This document shows positions 1-36,038 of a stretch of 64,000 nucleotides of DNA, one piece after another. The position numbers and the translations under genes were made by a program. The notes below the pieces were generated by a model, which did not search any database, was not told the origin of the DNA, and was given only the letters and a program-made list of their open reading frames with translations. The stretch comes from Escherichia phage KBNP1711: the sequence record NC_023593.1; one strand, written 5' to 3'. The number at the start of each line of letters is the position of its first letter. Position 1 is the first letter of the stretch.

Positions 1-478
1 CGCACTGCGTGCAACGCTGAAAAAGAAAGAACATAAAGAAAGTATTAAAAGAATAATAATAACATCAATTATCAATACCAATCTAATTAATACATACATC
101 ATTAATCCACCCATAATCGTTACACTAATCATTATTTACACTCAAACCATGGGGGATGCGATTGTTTCAATCCTACACTATTCTACCTGCAATAATGTGC
201 CCTTTACTTGTTTGTTATCAGGGCTGGCCTCTCATACCCTCCCAATTAATGAATGAAATAAACGGGGTGAAAGTAATGGGTACTATATTACACGGGGTAG
301 CGATTGCACGGGATAGGACACGGGGGAGGGTTAGGGCATTCAGGCACGTTCACGGGGAAGACGAACGCCAGTGAGATAACCCTTTTTTTAATGAGGACTC
401 CCCCTTTTTAGGAAACGCGCGCGAGGCACCTAGGCACACTCGGTCAAATCAGAATTTTAAACTGTTATATATAAGCAT

Positions 479-685
479 ATGCCCCAACTTTATGTTGTGG
501 ATTTAAGGTTGAGAGAGGGATTAATGAATCTAATTAAAGTGTTTAGACGGATGAAATGTAAGCATGATTATTATCTTCTTCGTAAAGCTTACGGGGATGA
601 AAGAATACACGGGCTATACTTATCAACATGGAAGTGTAAGGAATGTGGTAAGTTAAAGTTTAGTGAATGGGTGGACAGACCGTAA
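479..685 (+). CDS. hypothetical small Cys-rich protein (possible zinc ribbon)
   Basis: ORF track; CxH...CxxC spacing; no family recognised. Confidence 0.3.
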   Translation: MPQLYVVDLRLREGLMNLIKVFRRMKCKHDYYLLRKAYGDERIHGLYLSTWKCKECGKLKFSEWVDRP

Positions 686-912
686 TGGAATGGATATTCT
701 GGTTAGTAATAATCTTCTCTTTATTCATCTGCTTCTCTATAGCAAGGTGTATCAAATATGACTAAGCCTTAACATGACATGGCCTTTATGTGAGGTCCCC
801 TTTATATCAGAGGGATGTTTATGAGGTAGTCATCAGGGATGACGTAGCCTTTACGGGGTGGCCTTAATATGAGTACCCCTTTATGTCTTCCCTTTTTCAG
901 AGGAGAATTAAT

Positions 913-1170
913 ATGTATTTTATCTTAGACTTTTTATCAGAGGTGATTCCTCGGTTTCGCACTGAAAGGTGTGCATTCACATTTGAAGACATGGGTGACG
1001 GGGAGTTAATCCTCACCTGTATTGGTCGCTTAGTAGACTTAGACGATGACGAAGACTTTGATGCCACAATGGACGTAAGCGCCTTGGGTTGGCTTTACAT
1101 GAGAGCTTTCCTGTCATTCAAAACAAACACATTTACTGATTATAGAAAAGAGGACACTGATAATGAATAA
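913..1170 (+). CDS. hypothetical protein
   Basis: Track ORF 883..1170; AGGAG 7 nt upstream of ATG at 913 suggests the shorter start. Confidence 0.4.
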   Translation: MYFILDFLSEVIPRFRTERCAFTFEDMGDGELILTCIGRLVDLDDDEDFDATMDVSALGWLYMRAFLSFKTNTFTDYRKEDTDNE

Positions 1171-1681
1171 CACAACAATCATCGCAGCACAGGCTATGGA
1201 CTTAAACGATTATAACTCTGCCCTGTGTGGCTCAGGCACTTCAACTAAACTTATTAACGGACGGTTAGAACTGGTGAATGGTCTTTGTGTCCCTGATATC
1301 CATAGTGGTTCTATCCTTAAGCCAGAACATAAGAATCCTTCTACGTTAGAAGTTATTCAGTATGAATCTACCAAGCATAACCATTTGCCGGAACATGCAC
1401 GACAGATGATCGAATGGATAGAAGAAGCAGAATATGAAATGTTGTATAACTATATGAACTCAAAAGATGAGTGGACTCGATTGGTAAGCATTAACGAAGA
1501 TGGCACAGAAAAGATTACGTGGATTCATAAAGACGAAGTGGTTAACGACGTGGTAGAAGATTACGAAAAATTTTTGGTCGGAGGGTTGGCTGAAGTTGAG
1601 AAGGGGTATGCAGTTCCTGTAGAATACGAAGGTGAGCTTGTTGCTCTGAAGAAGATGTTTAACCTGAGCATCGATTGCTAA
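1163..1681 (+). CDS. hypothetical protein
   Basis: ORF track; GAGGA RBS; followed by terminator hairpin. Confidence 0.45.
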   Translation: MNNTTIIAAQAMDLNDYNSALCGSGTSTKLINGRLELVNGLCVPDIHSGSILKPEHKNPSTLEVIQYESTKHNHLPEHARQMIEWIEEAEYEMLYNYMNSKDEWTRLVSINEDGTEKITWIHKDEVVNDVVEDYEKFLVGGLAEVEKGYAVPVEYEGELVALKKMFNLSIDC

Positions 1682-2321: not shown

Positions 2322-3863
2322 ATGTCATTAGATAAAGAAGTATACGAAGCTCTCACTGGAGATAAACTAACAGTAGAGGAAAAGAAGCATCTGTTAGGAA
2401 TATTAAAAGAGCGAGATACATGGAGAAAGTATAATAAGATTCTAGCTTTCAAAGCATATGACTTTCAGAAGAAGTTTTATGAAGCAGGACTGAAGCACCG
2501 CTTTAGATTCCTGTGTGCAGCTAACCGTGTTGGTAAATCTTATAGTGAGGCATACGAGTTTGCTTGTCATGTCACAGGTCGCTACCCAACTTGGTGGACT
2601 GGATACAAATTTAAAAGACCTATCCTTGCATGGGCAGTCGGGATTACAGGGGATTCCACAAGAAAGGTTTTGCAAAAGGAATTGTTTGGCACACCTATTG
2701 GAAAAGATACAGATCTTATTGGTACAGGTGTGATTCCTCGTGATGCTATTGTCATAGACACAATAGAACGAGATGGTAACAAGCTTCAGATCGTACAAAT
2801 CAAACATCAAAACGAAAGGGGAGAGTTTGACGGCCTGAGCACATTAGAATTCCGTTCAACCCAACAGGGTGAACATACATTGATGGGTGCTACAGTTGAT
2901 TATATTTGGCTGGATGAAGAAGATCCTTATGAAAGTATGGCAATCTTTTCTCAGTGTGTAACACGTACACTCACAACTAAAGGTTTAGTAACGATTACAG
3001 CTACACCAGAGAACGGTTTAACAGAGCTGGTGGACAAGTTTATGAAAGGTGAAGGTGATGCAGATACAGGTTCTCTGTATTTCCAGAATGCTTCTTGGTG
3101 GGATGCACATGTTGACTTAGGTGGTCACATCTCAGACAAGGATATAAAGGATATGACCGAAGGTATTCCTGCTTGGCAGCTAGAGATGCGCTCCAAAGGT
3201 ATGCCTCTGTTGGGTTCAGGTTTGATTTATGATGTATCTGATGACTCAGTTAAGTGTGAACCATTCGATATCCCTGATACATGGAAACGTGTGTGTGCGG
3301 TTGATATCGGTATTGATCACCCTACTGCTGCTGTTTGGTCGGCTTACGATGCTAACACTGATACTATTTACATCTATGACTGCTATAAAGAAGGTGGTTA
3401 CACTCCAGCTTACCATGCTCCGGCTATTAATGGTCGAGGACAGTGGATTCCGGTGGTGTTACCTCACGATGCTGACAACCTTGAGAAAGGTAGTGGTTCT
3501 TCAGTGGCCCAATTCTATAGGAATGCAGGGGTTAACGTACAATCTGAGACCTTCTACAACAAGATTGGAATGGATGGTAAAAAGAACTTCTTTGTAGAGC
3601 CGGGAATTACAGATATTCGTGAACGTATGATGTCAGGTCGATTCAAGATCTTTAATACTGCTTCCTGTGCTAAACTCTTTGAAGAAAAAGCACGATACCA
3701 CCGTAAGGTTGGTAAGATTGTTAAAGAACATGATGACTTGATGGATGCGATGCGTTATTCTGCTTGCTCCGTAACACATAGAGGTCGTAGTAAACACGAT
3801 GCTAGCTACGGAAGTTCGTCGCTTTATCAAGAAAATATTAACAGATGGAATTCGAGTTACTAA
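2322..3863 (+). CDS. terL: terminase large subunit
   Basis: Walker A-like 'AANRVGKS', nuclease-domain acidic residues; GGAGGAAG RBS before ATG 2322 (track ORF starts 2250). Confidence 0.85.
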   Translation: MSLDKEVYEALTGDKLTVEEKKHLLGILKERDTWRKYNKILAFKAYDFQKKFYEAGLKHRFRFLCAANRVGKSYSEAYEFACHVTGRYPTWWTGYKFKRPILAWAVGITGDSTRKVLQKELFGTPIGKDTDLIGTGVIPRDAIVIDTIERDGNKLQIVQIKHQNERGEFDGLSTLEFRSTQQGEHTLMGATVDYIWLDEEDPYESMAIFSQCVTRTLTTKGLVTITATPENGLTELVDKFMKGEGDADTGSLYFQNASWWDAHVDLGGHISDKDIKDMTEGIPAWQLEMRSKGMPLLGSGLIYDVSDDSVKCEPFDIPDTWKRVCAVDIGIDHPTAAVWSAYDANTDTIYIYDCYKEGGYTPAYHAPAINGRGQWIPVVLPHDADNLEKGSGSSVAQFYRNAGVNVQSETFYNKIGMDGKKNFFVEPGITDIRERMMSGRFKIFNTASCAKLFEEKARYHRKVGKIVKEHDDLMDAMRYSACSVTHRGRSKHDASYGSSSLYQENINRWNSSY

Positions 3864-15120: not shown

Positions 15121-15339
15121 ATGAAAATGATGAAACAAATCAGTTATGGGTTAGCTTGTGTTGCTACCGGTTTTGCTGTGTCAGTGGCTGTTCCTGTTAA
15201 CGCTGTGCATCCTCTGGTAACACAACCTGCACCTGTTGAGAAATTGAGTGCATCATGCAAGCAGCGTACAATTCAAAATAATCTTGTGGTTATTTGTCCG
15301 GACTCTGATTCTAGTGCTCTGAGAAATATGCTTCAGTAA
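15121..15339 (+). CDS. small membrane protein, possible holin
   Basis: One N-terminal hydrophobic segment; directly upstream of lysozyme; AGGAG RBS. Confidence 0.3.
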   Translation: MKMMKQISYGLACVATGFAVSVAVPVNAVHPLVTQPAPVEKLSASCKQRTIQNNLVVICPDSDSSALRNMLQ

Positions 15340-15369: not shown

Positions 15370-15861
15370 ATGGATAATGTCGCATTGCCACCGATACAAC
15401 TGAGCTTAAGCCCAGAAGGGATGGAATTCATCATGAAGCATGAAGGTATGAGAACTCGTGCTTACCAAGATTCCGCAGGTATCTGGACGATATGTGTTGG
15501 GGCTACGCGCGATATGAATGGGTATCCAGTTAGACAGGGATTAACGTATTCTATAGAGGATTGTCTAGCTCTGCTAGATAGAGACACACAAGACTCTGTT
15601 CGTGCCACTCAGAAAAATATTAGGGTTCCTTTGTTAACCCACGAGTTTGATGCTCTCACCTCTTTCAACTTCAACGTTGGTGGTGGAGCTTTATCAACTT
15701 CTAAACTTAGGAAAGTTATTAACGGGGATGTGAAGGGTGATGTTTATTCTGAGTTCCTCCGTTGGGATAAAATTACAGTTAAAGGTAAGAAGATTAGTAG
15801 TCCGGGGTTGAAGAATCGTAGAACTGCTGAAGCTGATCTTTACACTGAAGGTAAATACTAA
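15370..15861 (+). CDS. lysozyme (T4 lysozyme-like glycoside hydrolase)
   Basis: 'EGMRTRAYQDSAGIWTICVGAT' matches the phage lysozyme catalytic E/D/T region. Confidence 0.75.
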   Translation: MDNVALPPIQLSLSPEGMEFIMKHEGMRTRAYQDSAGIWTICVGATRDMNGYPVRQGLTYSIEDCLALLDRDTQDSVRATQKNIRVPLLTHEFDALTSFNFNVGGGALSTSKLRKVINGDVKGDVYSEFLRWDKITVKGKKISSPGLKNRRTAEADLYTEGKY

Positions 15862-33564: not shown

Positions 33565-34206
33565 TTAAGACCCTTGGAATTCTTCTTTGTCGAAGTGCTT
33601 CTCTACCACATACTCATACAGATCTTTATACTCTGCATAACGACGGTAGAATGTACCGTGTGAGATGCCTAATTCTTTCTGAATGGAATCGTGAGGGATA
33701 CCTAAGAAGAGCATTGAGAACATGCTTGCGAGCTTCTGTGTGTCCATTGTATCACTCAAATCTTGGAAGAAGTAGAAGATACGAGATTCCATGAAAGGGT
33801 CCCCAACTGAATCATGCTTATTAACTGCATATTCCAGAGGACCTTCTGAGTAAATGTCAGGGTTGTTAAACATATCTGCTTCTGGAATAGCATAGATACG
33901 TCGATCACCAACTGTCTGTCGATTAGAACGGATAGACCAGATGATATTCTTCACACGATAGGTCATGTGCTCAATCTCTACCTCACCTTCTAGTAGAAGC
34001 TCTTCTTGCTTGGAATAGATGAAACGCCAAGCATTAAGCAACACCTCTTGAGCTACATCCTCTGCTTCATGATAGTCACGAATGTCGTACATAAAGAATT
34101 TGTGAACCACTTTCCAGTTCACCTTATAGAACTCATCGAAGGTTGGGAAGTATTTGATTGGAATACCGTGAATACGATACCGAGTAGGTGTTGTTTTCTT
34201 AGCCAC
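33565..34206 (-). CDS. ECF-type sigma factor-like protein
   Basis: Region 2-like '[16 protein letters not shown]'; region 4-like HTH '[17 protein letters not shown]'. Confidence 0.5.
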
Positions 34207-34236
34207 AAGTTATCCTTAACTTTGTTGGTTTTAAAT

Positions 34237-34446
34237 TTATACGCTGATCAAGTAAATAGCCGTTTCGGGGTTTGGTGTGTGTTGTTGTGGTGTTCCGAGG
34301 ATACGAATCCACTCATCGTTTTCTGGTTCGTAATACAACCAAGCATCTGTGAATTTGAAAGTTTTTCCAAACACTTTGTTATCGTGTTCCCAAATTACGT
34401 GAACATTTCGAGTTCCTTGTGGTAGAACTGATTGCGCTCTAATCAT
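34237..34446 (-). CDS. hypothetical small protein
   Basis: ORF track only. Confidence 0.3.
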   Translation of the reverse strand: MIRAQSVLPQGTRNVHVIWEHDNKVFGKTFKFTDAWLYYEPENDEWIRILGTPQQHTPNPETAIYLISV

Positions 34447-34706
34447 TGGATACCTCTTTCTTTCAGAGCCTCTATTAACCCGTTGTGGTTAGCAGCACAC
34501 TCTGTGTATTGGTCTTGATACCACTCTAGTGTTGTTGATAGTGCAACACCTTGTGGACCTTCTAGCATCGGTAAATCTACCCTACACTCAGCTTTTAGGT
34601 TTGTTGGTAAGGGCATTAATTGCCTGCTGTTGTCGCTCATTGAACAACTTGACATACTCATCACTAGCGCAAACATTATAAAAAACTGGCTTAGTCTTTT
34701 CATAGT
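34443..34706 (-). CDS. lipoprotein, o-spanin-like
   Basis: Signal peptide 'MKRLSQFFIMFALVMSMSSC', Pro-rich mature part; start embedded in the upstream gene. Confidence 0.35.
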   Translation of the reverse strand, partial: TMKRLSQFFIMFALVMSMSSCSMSDNSRQLMPLPTNLKAECRVDLPMLEGPQGVALSTTLEWYQDQYTECAANHNGLIEALKERGIQ

Positions 34707-34938
34707 GCATCTCTTTGTAAACTGTCTCAGTGTTCTTCTTCCAGTCTGATAGACCATTGAGAACTCTCATAGCAACCTCATCAGCTGCTTTGTTTCTCTC
34801 TATCTCTAATTCTTGCTGATGTTTCTCTTTGTCCAGATTGTTACTATCTGTTTGGTATTCGTTAAACTTCATACCACCAAAGAACACAAGAGCTGAAAAG
34901 ACGATGAACCCTAAGTTATCGCTTAACGTGTTTTGCAT
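34588..34938 (-). CDS. membrane-anchored coiled-coil protein, i-spanin-like
   Basis: N-terminal TM 'LGFIVFSALVFFGG' then charged helical region; overlaps the lipoprotein gene out of frame. Confidence 0.35.
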   Translation of the reverse strand: MQNTLSDNLGFIVFSALVFFGGMKFNEYQTDSNNLDKEKHQQELEIERNKAADEVAMRVLNGLSDWKKNTETVYKEMHYEKTKPVFYNVCASDEYVKLFNERQQQAINALTNKPKS

Positions 34939-34949
34939 ATTATCTCCAA

Positions 34950-34975
34950 CGAAAAAAGCCACCCGAAGGTGGCTA
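34950..34975 (-). terminator. rho-independent terminator (- strand)
   Basis: 'agccacc cgaa ggtggct' hairpin with U-run on the - strand. Confidence 0.5.
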
Positions 34976-34996
34976 AACTATTACAAGGAGAGATAC

Positions 34997-35737
34997 TTAG
35001 AACGGAGATTCGTCTTCTTCAAAAGTAGACTCAGGCTCACGGTCGATAGTAGGGATAGAAGCAACCGGCTCTTTCTGCTCGTTCTCAGAAGCCTTAGTGA
35101 CTTCACGACCAGCGAGAGGAATGTTCTTAGCGTCATTAGCTTGGGTAAGCAGGTTACGCTGGAATGGGAAGATTACCTGGTAAGCAGCTACGTTATCATC
35201 TGTTTCAGCATACGGTTCGAAGAAGACCAAAGGACTGCGAGCAGCAGCAACAGCTTCACGATACTTGGTAGGAATCGGAGTAATCTGTTTGATAGAATTC
35301 TTAACTTCACCAGCTTTGTTGGTGTAAGAGTTAATCAGAACGTTTACAGGCTGACCTAACAGCATTTCTTTAAACCAAGCTAAATCACCTTTCAGTGCTT
35401 GGATGCTAGGGTCAACCATCTTAATTAGGTTGAGAATACCAGAGTTCTTAGCTCGTGGGTTTACATCGAAGCTCTTAAATTGACATGCAGGGCGCGGGTC
35501 AAGAGCGTTGCCTTCAGAGTCCTTACCGGTTGCATCAACACTAATCAGTTCAAACGCCAAGTCCATACGGAAAGCTGGGTTCTTAGGAGTAACTGCTTTA
35601 GTTTTAGGGTCAACCCAAGGGTCACGATTGTGAACACCAAGACCAACAACACGAACGATACGAGCTTCGTACTCACCATCAGGGATTACGTCGTAGTTGG
35701 ATTTACGGGAAACGGACATAGTTGGGATAGAAGACAT
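34997..35737 (-). CDS. single-stranded DNA-binding protein-like
   Basis: Acidic C-terminal tail ending in Phe ('EEDESPF'), as in SSB proteins. Confidence 0.45.
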   Translation of the reverse strand: MSSIPTMSVSRKSNYDVIPDGEYEARIVRVVGLGVHNRDPWVDPKTKAVTPKNPAFRMDLAFELISVDATGKDSEGNALDPRPACQFKSFDVNPRAKNSGILNLIKMVDPSIQALKGDLAWFKEMLLGQPVNVLINSYTNKAGEVKNSIKQITPIPTKYREAVAAARSPLVFFEPYAETDDNVAAYQVIFPFQRNLLTQANDAKNIPLAGREVTKASENEQKEPVASIPTIDREPESTFEEDESPF

Positions 35738-35794
35738 ATTTTAATTTCCTTATTTAATTTAAGATTGTTGCTCACTTTGAGCGGTTATGTATAG

Positions 35795-35803
35795 TATACA
35801 TTA
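35795..35803 (-). promoter_or_regulatory. TAATGTATA motif (- strand)
   Basis: + strand 'tatacatta'; 58 nt upstream of SSB-like gene start. Confidence 0.4.
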
Positions 35804-35866
35804 CACCTATACCGATAAGAGTGCTATGTAGTATAAGCATCAGTGGTAGTAGATATTGACTACTAG

Positions 35867-35875
35867 TAATGTATA
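35867..35875 (+). promoter_or_regulatory. TAATGTATA motif (+ strand, faces away from flanking genes)
   Basis: Exact motif in the 414-bp intergenic region. Confidence 0.3.
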
Positions 35876-35970
35876 TATTGTATAGATGATAATTCTATTG
35901 CAGGCTTGTATATTGGGCAATTCTCAGAATCCCTTGCAAGTACCGAAGGGCAGGAGACACCTGCGAGATA

Positions 35971-36038
35971 AAAATAGAGAATTAAGGAATCCTTGATTTA
36001 GGTTGTGGGGACTCCTAGGGACTTTGATTCTCTATTTA
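35971..36038. repeat. inverted repeat flanking a 45-nt spacer
   Basis: 'aaaatagagaat' ... 'attctctattt'. Confidence 0.4.

Follow-up and report, generated by a model that had tools for sequence, protein, structure and literature searches.

A predicted overlapped spanin gene pair, distant from the holin and endolysin genes, in Escherichia phage KBNP1711

Known spanin systems and the gene pair in KBNP1711

Two-component spanins, which pair an inner-membrane protein (i-spanin) with a lipoprotein of the outer membrane (the o-spanin), have been catalogued from many phages, and those of phiEco32 and its relatives are the closest described counterparts of the genes considered here. These genes overlap on the minus strand of Escherichia phage KBNP1711 (NC_023593.1), within a stretch of 64,000 nucleotides (nt) that was analysed as a whole and is called the window below, and they very probably encode the two-component spanin, of overlapped architecture, of a phiEco32-like (Gordonclarkvirinae) podophage. 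The catalogue of Kongari et al. (2018, PMC6139136) places PhiEco32 in the overlapped i-spanin family JH2, alongside Felix O1-like phages, and assembles an o-spanin group from NJ01, ECBP2, KBNP1711 and PhiEco32. Its Table S4 lists the PhiEco32 spanins at 35417-35768 and 35272-35533, with a 116-nt overlap, products of 116 and 86 amino acids (aa) and a mature o-spanin of 67 aa. Recent kuravirus papers, including PMC13417854, describe the same genes as i- and o-spanin, and in one of them the o-spanin is located roughly 19 kb away from the holin and endolysin, on the complementary strand. The spanin reading is already the accepted annotation for phiEco32-type phages, and since the pair has been catalogued since 2018 the finding is correct but ordinary.

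The features that define the pair are as follows.

34588..34938, minus strand: predicted i-spanin gene, orthologue of phiEco32 gp39; 116 aa from an ATG start (open reading frame and translation, phrog_1152, Kongari family JH2)
[quoted passage not shown]
34588..34703, minus strand: dual-coding overlap of 116 nt, encoding the i-spanin C-terminus (KPVFYNVCASDEYVKLFNERQQQA...) together with the o-spanin signal peptide and the start of the mature protein

An initial annotation, made from the letters of the window, had proposed an overlapping membrane-protein/lipoprotein pair with a spanin-like layout on this strand. Both open reading frames (ORFs) are real, and the spanin interpretation is supported by phrog_1152, by the Kongari catalogue and by the annotation of phage Paul. 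The comparison with a spanin catalogue that had been suggested as a check finds the orthologous phiEco32 pair listed with the same 116-nt overlap (PMC6139136); indeed, the overlap and product lengths computed here equal the Kongari figures for phiEco32. The agreement extends across the close relatives: phiEco32 (gp39 and extended gp38), EP335, Paul and ZCEC16 share with KBNP1711 the product lengths (116 and 86 aa), the +1 frame and the 116-nt overlap, as well as the neighbours (a gene-40 homologue and a terminator upstream, a sigma-factor gene downstream) and the gap of about 19 kb to holin and endolysin. The lipobox is MSSC here, versus MSAC in phiEco32 and TSSC in EP335, and the position after the o-spanin gene is held by a macro-domain (Appr-1-p processing) gene, gene 37, in phiEco32, versus a 69-aa ORF here and in EP335.

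At the nucleotide level, Escherichia phage EP335 (Gordonclarkvirinae, Nieuwekanaalvirus) matches a 2-kb query (34000..36000) at 97.5% identity, and phiEco32 and other kuraviruses match it at about 84%. The i-spanin matches phrog_1152 ('Rz-like spanin') at E 7e-38, with identities of 98% to EP335, 95% to phiEco32 gp39 and 31-35% to Felix O1-like members (E ~1e-8). The o-spanin matches phrog_2425 ('unknown function') at E 6e-25 and, weakly, the spanin family phrog_456, and it is 97% identical to its counterpart in EP335, 85% to the phiEco32 ORF and 76% to that of ECBP2. Similarity covers the periplasmic domain, both to the JH2 i-spanins and to the NJ01/PhiEco32 o-spanins of the Kongari catalogue, and the NJ01 spanin sequences printed in its supplement match those of the locus that we call L009. 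The record of phage Paul (Center for Phage Technology) annotates both spanins, with a TMpred transmembrane domain (TMD) at residues 8-23 of the i-spanin and a LipoP signal peptidase II (SPII) cleavage at 19/20, score 18.0, in the o-spanin.

The likeness to lambda Rz/Rz1 lies in the combination of an inner-membrane protein of type II with a small lipoprotein of the outer membrane whose gene uses the +1 frame of the same DNA, in the periplasmic Cys found in both proteins, and in a mechanism presumed to be the same, in which a complex formed through the C-termini would span the periplasm and membrane fusion would follow degradation of the wall. In contrast, no sequence similarity is detectable at the level of Pfam: neither protein gives a match above noise even at E <= 10, and so neither belongs with PF03245 (Rz) or PF06085 (Rz1). 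An NCBIfam scan of both proteins likewise returned no match beyond noise, and neither collection models the family. Moreover, the pair here is overlapped while that of lambda is embedded, and the spanin genes here lie outside the lysis cassette. The i-spanin is shorter than Rz (116 versus 153 aa), and the mature o-spanin is longer than that of Rz1 (67 versus 40 aa), with a helical C-terminus, little proline and no penta-proline stretch. The spanin pair is one that would work like Rz/Rz1 yet is not a sequence member of the PF03245 and PF06085 families. P2 LysB/LysC and the Jersey and T5 families (Kongari et al. 2018) are likewise overlapped in layout, the o-spanin gene beginning within the 3' portion of the i-spanin gene and ending beyond its stop. 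All of them are different sequence families, and P2 and T5, unlike the phage here, have their spanins in or near the lysis cassette.

Products, overlap and conservation

Two further features concern the i-spanin gene.

34870..34914, minus strand: i-spanin transmembrane codons, LGFIVFSALVFFGGM, residues 9-23 (Kyte-Doolittle; TMpred 8-23 in the Paul orthologue)
34943..34947, minus strand: i-spanin Shine-Dalgarno sequence GGAGA, 4 nt 5' of the ATG (a ribosome-binding site is annotated at the equivalent place in Paul)

The i-spanin product reads MQNTLSDN-LGFIVFSALVFFGGM-KFNEYQTD..., with an N-terminal tail of 8 residues ahead of the sole hydrophobic stretch of the protein (residues 9-23; Kyte-Doolittle 15-residue maximum 2.2). 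The part C-terminal to the TMD, about 88-90 aa, is polar and charged and predicted to be mainly helical. A single-sequence AlphaFold model places helices at residues 4-20, 36-76, 80-91 and 93-111, and the low-confidence AlphaFold2 (AF2) models of the two spanins were used for secondary structure only. The transmembrane helix followed by a charged helical region that had been claimed for 34588..34938 is thus found, the helical part at the low confidence of the model. This is the form of a small i-spanin with a single N-terminal TMD and its bulk C-terminal to it (type II topology), although the orientation is a presumed one. One Cys (NVCASD) is present in the periplasmic domain and is conserved.

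The o-spanin gene is marked by a lipoprotein signal and by a start site within the i-spanin coding sequence.

34644..34655, minus strand: lipobox codons M-S-S-C, residues 17-20, with Cys20 the predicted lipidated residue (PROSITE-type rule, conservation, LipoP in Paul)
34710..34715, minus strand: o-spanin Shine-Dalgarno-like AAGAGA, within the i-spanin coding sequence (conserved in overlapped kuravirus-type loci)

The lipoprotein ORF had been given as 34443..34706, in another frame than the membrane protein. Its frame and end are right, but the codon at 34706 is ACT, one codon 5' of the real ATG at 34703, so that the gene is 34443..34703 and its product 86 aa. Because the gene extends 145 nt past the i-spanin stop, the architecture is overlapped and not, as had been stated, embedded; the two genes lie on the same strand and their arrangement is identical to that of the phiEco32 catalogue entry. 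The overlapped kuravirus-type loci that were compared share a start region of the form aaAGAGatgca(c/t)tATG, and the Kongari curators likewise marked AGAG for the NJ01 o-spanin (PMC6139136 supplement). At the other end of the gene, the stop overlaps the ATG of the next ORF as ATGA. Two other candidate starts for genes of the pair were rejected: an in-frame upstream ATG at 34757, which is absent from the phiEco32 ORF, and a GTG at 34962, which falls within the terminator hairpin described below.

The precursor begins MKRLSQFFIMFALVMSMSS|CSMSD. It satisfies a lipobox rule of the PROSITE PS51257 type: residue 20 is the Cys (SMSS|C), the n-region is MKR and the h-region comprises 11 residues; the LipoP value for the SPII signal comes from the Paul orthologue. 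The lipobox-like MSSC noted initially therefore passes the rule, and 12/12 loci retain its Cys. Position +2 holds Ser, again in 12/12 loci, so the o-spanin is without a Lol-avoidance Asp, as suits sorting to the outer membrane. The mature part was described as containing Pro and Cys, and its 67 aa include 4 Pro and 3 Cys. Besides the lipidated Cys, two conserved Cys are present (...EC... and ...CAANHNGL...); these and the i-spanin Cys, all conserved across the 12 loci, would be available in the periplasm for intermolecular disulfides.

How strong is the evidence that the second frame is translated? A lipobox match is not beyond chance by itself, since the window holds 2 ATG-started matches to the rule and mononucleotide-shuffled windows hold about 1 each, and conservation and codon-position tests were used instead. 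The other match, antisense at 3633..3779, has no proper hydrophobic core, and the product of 34443..34703 is the only convincing lipoprotein candidate in the window. The strict rule has its own limits, as it misses the canonical LSAC of ECBP2 owing to an Asn at -4. In the 145 nt past the i-spanin stop, 8 kuravirus-type sequences differ at 58 variable sites, distributed 18/3/37 over positions 1/2/3 of the o-spanin codons. When the same 145 nt are compared with phiEco32, the ratio of synonymous to non-synonymous changes is 22:7 in the o-spanin frame, and the two remaining frames give 2:26 and 0:29. The pattern of substitution among relatives shows the o-spanin frame to be protein-coding and under purifying selection. 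The overlap is the least variable part of the locus (23/116 sites, versus 74/235 and 58/142 in its flanks), and its changes fall mainly at the third position of i-spanin codons, as expected if the conserved i-spanin C-terminus dominates there and the o-spanin signal peptide tolerates substitutions.

Related loci were collected largely from GenBank phage records, which supplied the wider diversity, while IMG/VR gave only 5. All 12 homologous loci examined, down to those at 34-41% identity, retain the spanin pair, the o-spanin ATG, the lipidation Cys, the +2 Ser, the two further o-spanin Cys and the i-spanin Cys, and the +1 frame recurs in each of the 11 loci in which the spanin genes overlap. 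The o-spanin ATG, Shine-Dalgarno sequence, Cys and C-terminal CAANHNGL motif are conserved down to 38% identity. By tblastn, i-spanin relatives occur in 416 phage records and o-spanin relatives in 117; the i-spanin family reaches more than 300 Felix O1-like and other phage records, several sampled rows of which annotate i-spanin/o-spanin pairs.

The SU7 locus (L012) differs from the others in its layout. A homing-endonuclease gene (HNH_3 and AP2 domains; 418..1455 of that locus) has been inserted in the spanin overlap, with duplication of about 31 nt, and the spanin genes are thereby separated. The SU7 o-spanin retains a lipobox on an unrelated signal peptide, MLTKKKQKSCLVIFLASSLMAC, which argues that selection acts on the lipoprotein signal itself. 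In T5/Shivani, too, a homing-endonuclease insertion converts overlapped into separated spanins, and SU7 is a further example of this type of event, which was discussed in Kongari et al. (2018). A homing endonuclease also lies within the i-spanin match of phage E20-1.

In public records the o-spanin is called too short, without signal peptide or lipobox: as a 41-aa ORF34 in EP335 (3441..3566 of locus L001), as a 57-aa gp38 in phiEco32 (3643..3816 of L003) and as a 57-aa 'o-spanin' in EK5 (3643..3816 of L002). The full 86-aa ORF is present in all three phages.

Position relative to the lysis genes and transcriptional context

The presumed partners of the spanins lie far away, in the late operon on the other strand.

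15370..15861, plus strand: endolysin gene (Phage_lysozyme, PF00959), the functional partner whose action would release the spanins
15121..15339, plus strand: annotated holin candidate, phrog_11161 (8e-47), directly upstream of the endolysin gene

The pair had been placed 19 kb from the lysozyme gene and on the opposite strand, and the measured distance from endolysin to spanins is 18.6 kb, on opposite strands. A separation of about 19 kb recurs in the close relatives inspected, EP335 and vAPECPW12. Linkage of spanin genes to holin and endolysin is usual but not required. In phage T4, the spanin genes PseT.3/PseT.2 are unlinked from the holin (t) and endolysin (e) genes, and spanins need not be co-located or strictly co-expressed with the lysis genes. 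The T4 genes are of separated architecture and unrelated in sequence, in contrast to the overlapped pair here.

An association with holin and endolysin that is absent from this genome is present for divergent members of both PHROG families in two unrelated phages (loci L013 and L014, 34-41% identity). The Flyfo podovirus Tbat2_2 has a holin gene (phrog_198) followed by a small ORF, the endolysin gene (phrog_873) and an overlapped phrog_1152/phrog_2425 pair, and in the P2-like Salmonella phage SI7 a holin gene (phrog_175) is followed by an M15 endolysin gene and again by an overlapped phrog_1152/phrog_2425 pair. Homologous pairs placed right after holin and endolysin in two unrelated phages argue for a lysis role rather than for superinfection exclusion.

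The holin candidate itself has a single hydrophobic stretch, a lipobox-like GLAC at residues 10-13 and a weak match to the spanin family phrog_812 (E 0.006). A 2026 kuravirus paper (PMC13417854) describes a homologue with a signal peptide only and no TMD, and questions its identity as a holin; the real holin of the kuravirus group may not be settled.

The transcriptional surroundings of the pair include the following features.

35795..35803, minus strand: exact gp36-holoenzyme promoter consensus TAATGTATA, 58 nt upstream of the gene-40 homologue and conserved in relatives
34951..34974, minus strand: strong hairpin resembling an intrinsic terminator, AGCCACC-UUCG-GGUGGCU with a U6 tail, which separates the gene-40 homologue from the i-spanin gene (annotated as a terminator in Paul)
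34237..34446, minus strand: downstream 69-aa ORF, phrog_30479, function unassigned; its ATG overlaps the o-spanin stop (ATGA)

From the terminator onward the order is spanins, 69-aa ORF and sigma-factor gene (33565..34206), all transcribed in the same direction. In phiEco32, six gp36 promoters have been mapped, upstream of genes 6, 13, 26, 40, 58 and 68, with the consensus tAATGTAtA (PMC8948821), and the copy at 35795..35803 is likely the promoter of the unit of gene 40, spanins and sigma factor. The initial annotation had spoken of an early strand, which is imprecise: the minus strand holds early and middle genes alike, and the spanin genes probably do not belong to an early unit, since a middle-promoter consensus of the gp36 type lies upstream of them. 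We infer that they would be transcribed as middle genes, by read-through of the terminator.

A second exact TAATGTATA lies at 35867..35875 on the plus strand, in the same intergenic region upstream of the gene-40 homologue. It faces away from the minus-strand copy, 63 bp apart, and the two recur in this opposed orientation in EP335, EK5, phiEco32, Paul and three IMG/VR contigs. As a putative promoter, the copy on the plus strand would fire antisense to early and middle genes. In a predicted RNA fold of 34930..35000 (minus strand), a stem flanking the terminator is formed by the i-spanin Shine-Dalgarno sequence GGAGAU and a CUCUCC close to where the gene-40 homologue ends (minimum free energy -19.2 kcal/mol, z -3.1). 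Such a stem might limit translation of the i-spanin, or its occurrence may be due to chance.

Alternative explanations and a proposed mechanism

Several observations count against a spanin function for the pair, or at least leave it less secure. The i-spanin tail MQNTLSDN is net negative and lacks basic residues, so that the positive-inside rule alone does not predict an N-in/C-out orientation, and the Kongari curators flagged the same problem for the N-tail of NJ01 (PMC6139136 supplement). According to our reading of the supplementary columns of that study, no coiled coil is predicted for the phiEco32 i-spanin. The o-spanin lipobox has Met at -3, where Leu, Val or Ile is usual, and the Pro content of the mature protein is only 6%, unlike that of lambda Rz1. 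Both structure models are of low confidence (pLDDT, the predicted local distance difference test, of 55 for the i-spanin and 51 for the o-spanin). The spanin function rests on homology, topology and gene context, and no genetic or lysis test of the phiEco32-type family was found in the literature. Finally, the assignment of genes 38 and 39 to the middle temporal class rests on secondary descriptions and on the promoter consensus.

Could the two proteins then do something else? The lipoprotein might serve in superinfection exclusion or block a receptor, in the manner of T5 Llp or phi80 Cor, and be produced ahead of lysis, with the overlapping membrane protein having an unrelated role. The initial annotation had raised exclusion as an alternative, and it would suit genes that are not part of the late holin/endolysin unit but share an operon with genes of regulation and metabolism, as it would suit the 'unknown function' label of phrog_2425. 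Nevertheless, the lipoprotein gene is paired with an i-spanin-family gene in all loci compared, the homologous pairs of Tbat2_2 and SI7 lie immediately 3' of holin and endolysin, no exclusion-annotated PHROG family is matched at E <= 0.01, and spanin curators class the lipoprotein as an o-spanin. We therefore regard this alternative as unsupported and very unlikely, although the lipoprotein may have a dual role, as both spanin subunit and exclusion factor. It is still harder to favor the idea that the second frame arose by chance and goes untranslated, the 116-aa protein being the sole product. Many GenBank records lack the full ORF, as in EP335 and phiEco32, the Shine-Dalgarno sequence (AAGAG) is weak and lipobox matches arise about once in each shuffled window. 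But the strong third-position bias and the 22:7 ratio are seen in the o-spanin frame only, and beyond the i-spanin stop; the ATG, Shine-Dalgarno sequence, Cys and CAANHNGL motif persist to 38% identity; the stop is coupled to the next gene; and SU7 keeps an intact lipoprotein ORF despite the disruption of the overlap. This explanation is extremely improbable.

The charge of the N-tail raises a further possibility, namely that the 116-aa protein lies N-out/C-in and is a regulator anchored in the membrane, such as an anti-sigma factor directed at the adjacent gp36, which resembles sigma factors of the extracytoplasmic function (ECF) type, and that the lipoprotein has a separate function. The first Lys follows the TMD, the i-spanin gene is only about 380 bp upstream of the sigma-factor gene and in the same direction, no anti-sigma factor is known for phiEco32-like phages, and the related phage Privateer is without a clear candidate. 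Considering, however, that the N-tail carries K/R in the divergent homologues of SI7, Tbat2_2 and the L010 contig and that these homologues come from lysis cassettes or from genomes without an adjacent sigma gene, it is difficult to see how such a regulator could account for the family. Its more than 300 Felix O1-like and other records, with annotated spanin pairs in several sampled rows, point the same way; the conserved Cys of the C-terminal domain fits a periplasmic location; and the known regulator of gp36 is gp79, not the 116-aa protein. An anti-sigma function is thus about as improbable as a chance ORF, and even taken together these three explanations command only a very small share of the probability.

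A different departure from the standard picture concerns regulation. Perhaps the location of the spanins in the sigma-factor operon, behind a gp36-type promoter and a terminator whose flanking stem can pair with the i-spanin ribosome-binding site, is no accident of the genome's history but amounts to a distinct regulatory design that pre-loads the envelope from mid-infection, and a second role could then fall to the early-made lipoprotein or to the complex, such as superinfection exclusion or envelope remodelling. We consider this elaboration unlikely.

Under the preferred reading, that of an overlapped two-component spanin, the steps of its action can be proposed by analogy with Rz/Rz1, for which an established model exists (work of the Young laboratory; summary in PMC6139136). 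The i-spanin would be anchored in the inner membrane, N-in and C-out, and the o-spanin would be lipidated at Cys20 and carried by the Lol system to the outer membrane. The two would bind through their C-terminal parts, candidate contact motifs being the conserved PVF-NVCASD-YV-LFNE-QQQ of the i-spanin and the CAANHNGL helix of the o-spanin, and the conserved periplasmic Cys probably form stabilising disulfides. Complexes would accumulate across the periplasm, restrained by the peptidoglycan mesh, until the wall is removed by the action of holin and endolysin (15.1-15.9 kb, late operon); the complexes would then fuse the inner membrane with the outer, and the cell would burst. How does this scheme relate to a gene pair so far from the endolysin gene? 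With transcription from the gp36-type promoter upstream of the gene-40 homologue and read-through of the terminator, the spanins would be loaded before lysis, and since in the standard model the complexes are harmless until the wall is degraded, both the early loading and the separation from the endolysin gene would be tolerable.

The significance of these results lies chiefly in correct annotation, and they hold nothing new on mechanism. Recognition of the true 86-aa lipoprotein gene corrects the shortened calls in public records and the 'unknown function' label of phrog_2425, and for the phage-therapy candidates of the kuravirus group the o-spanin completes the lysis gene set.

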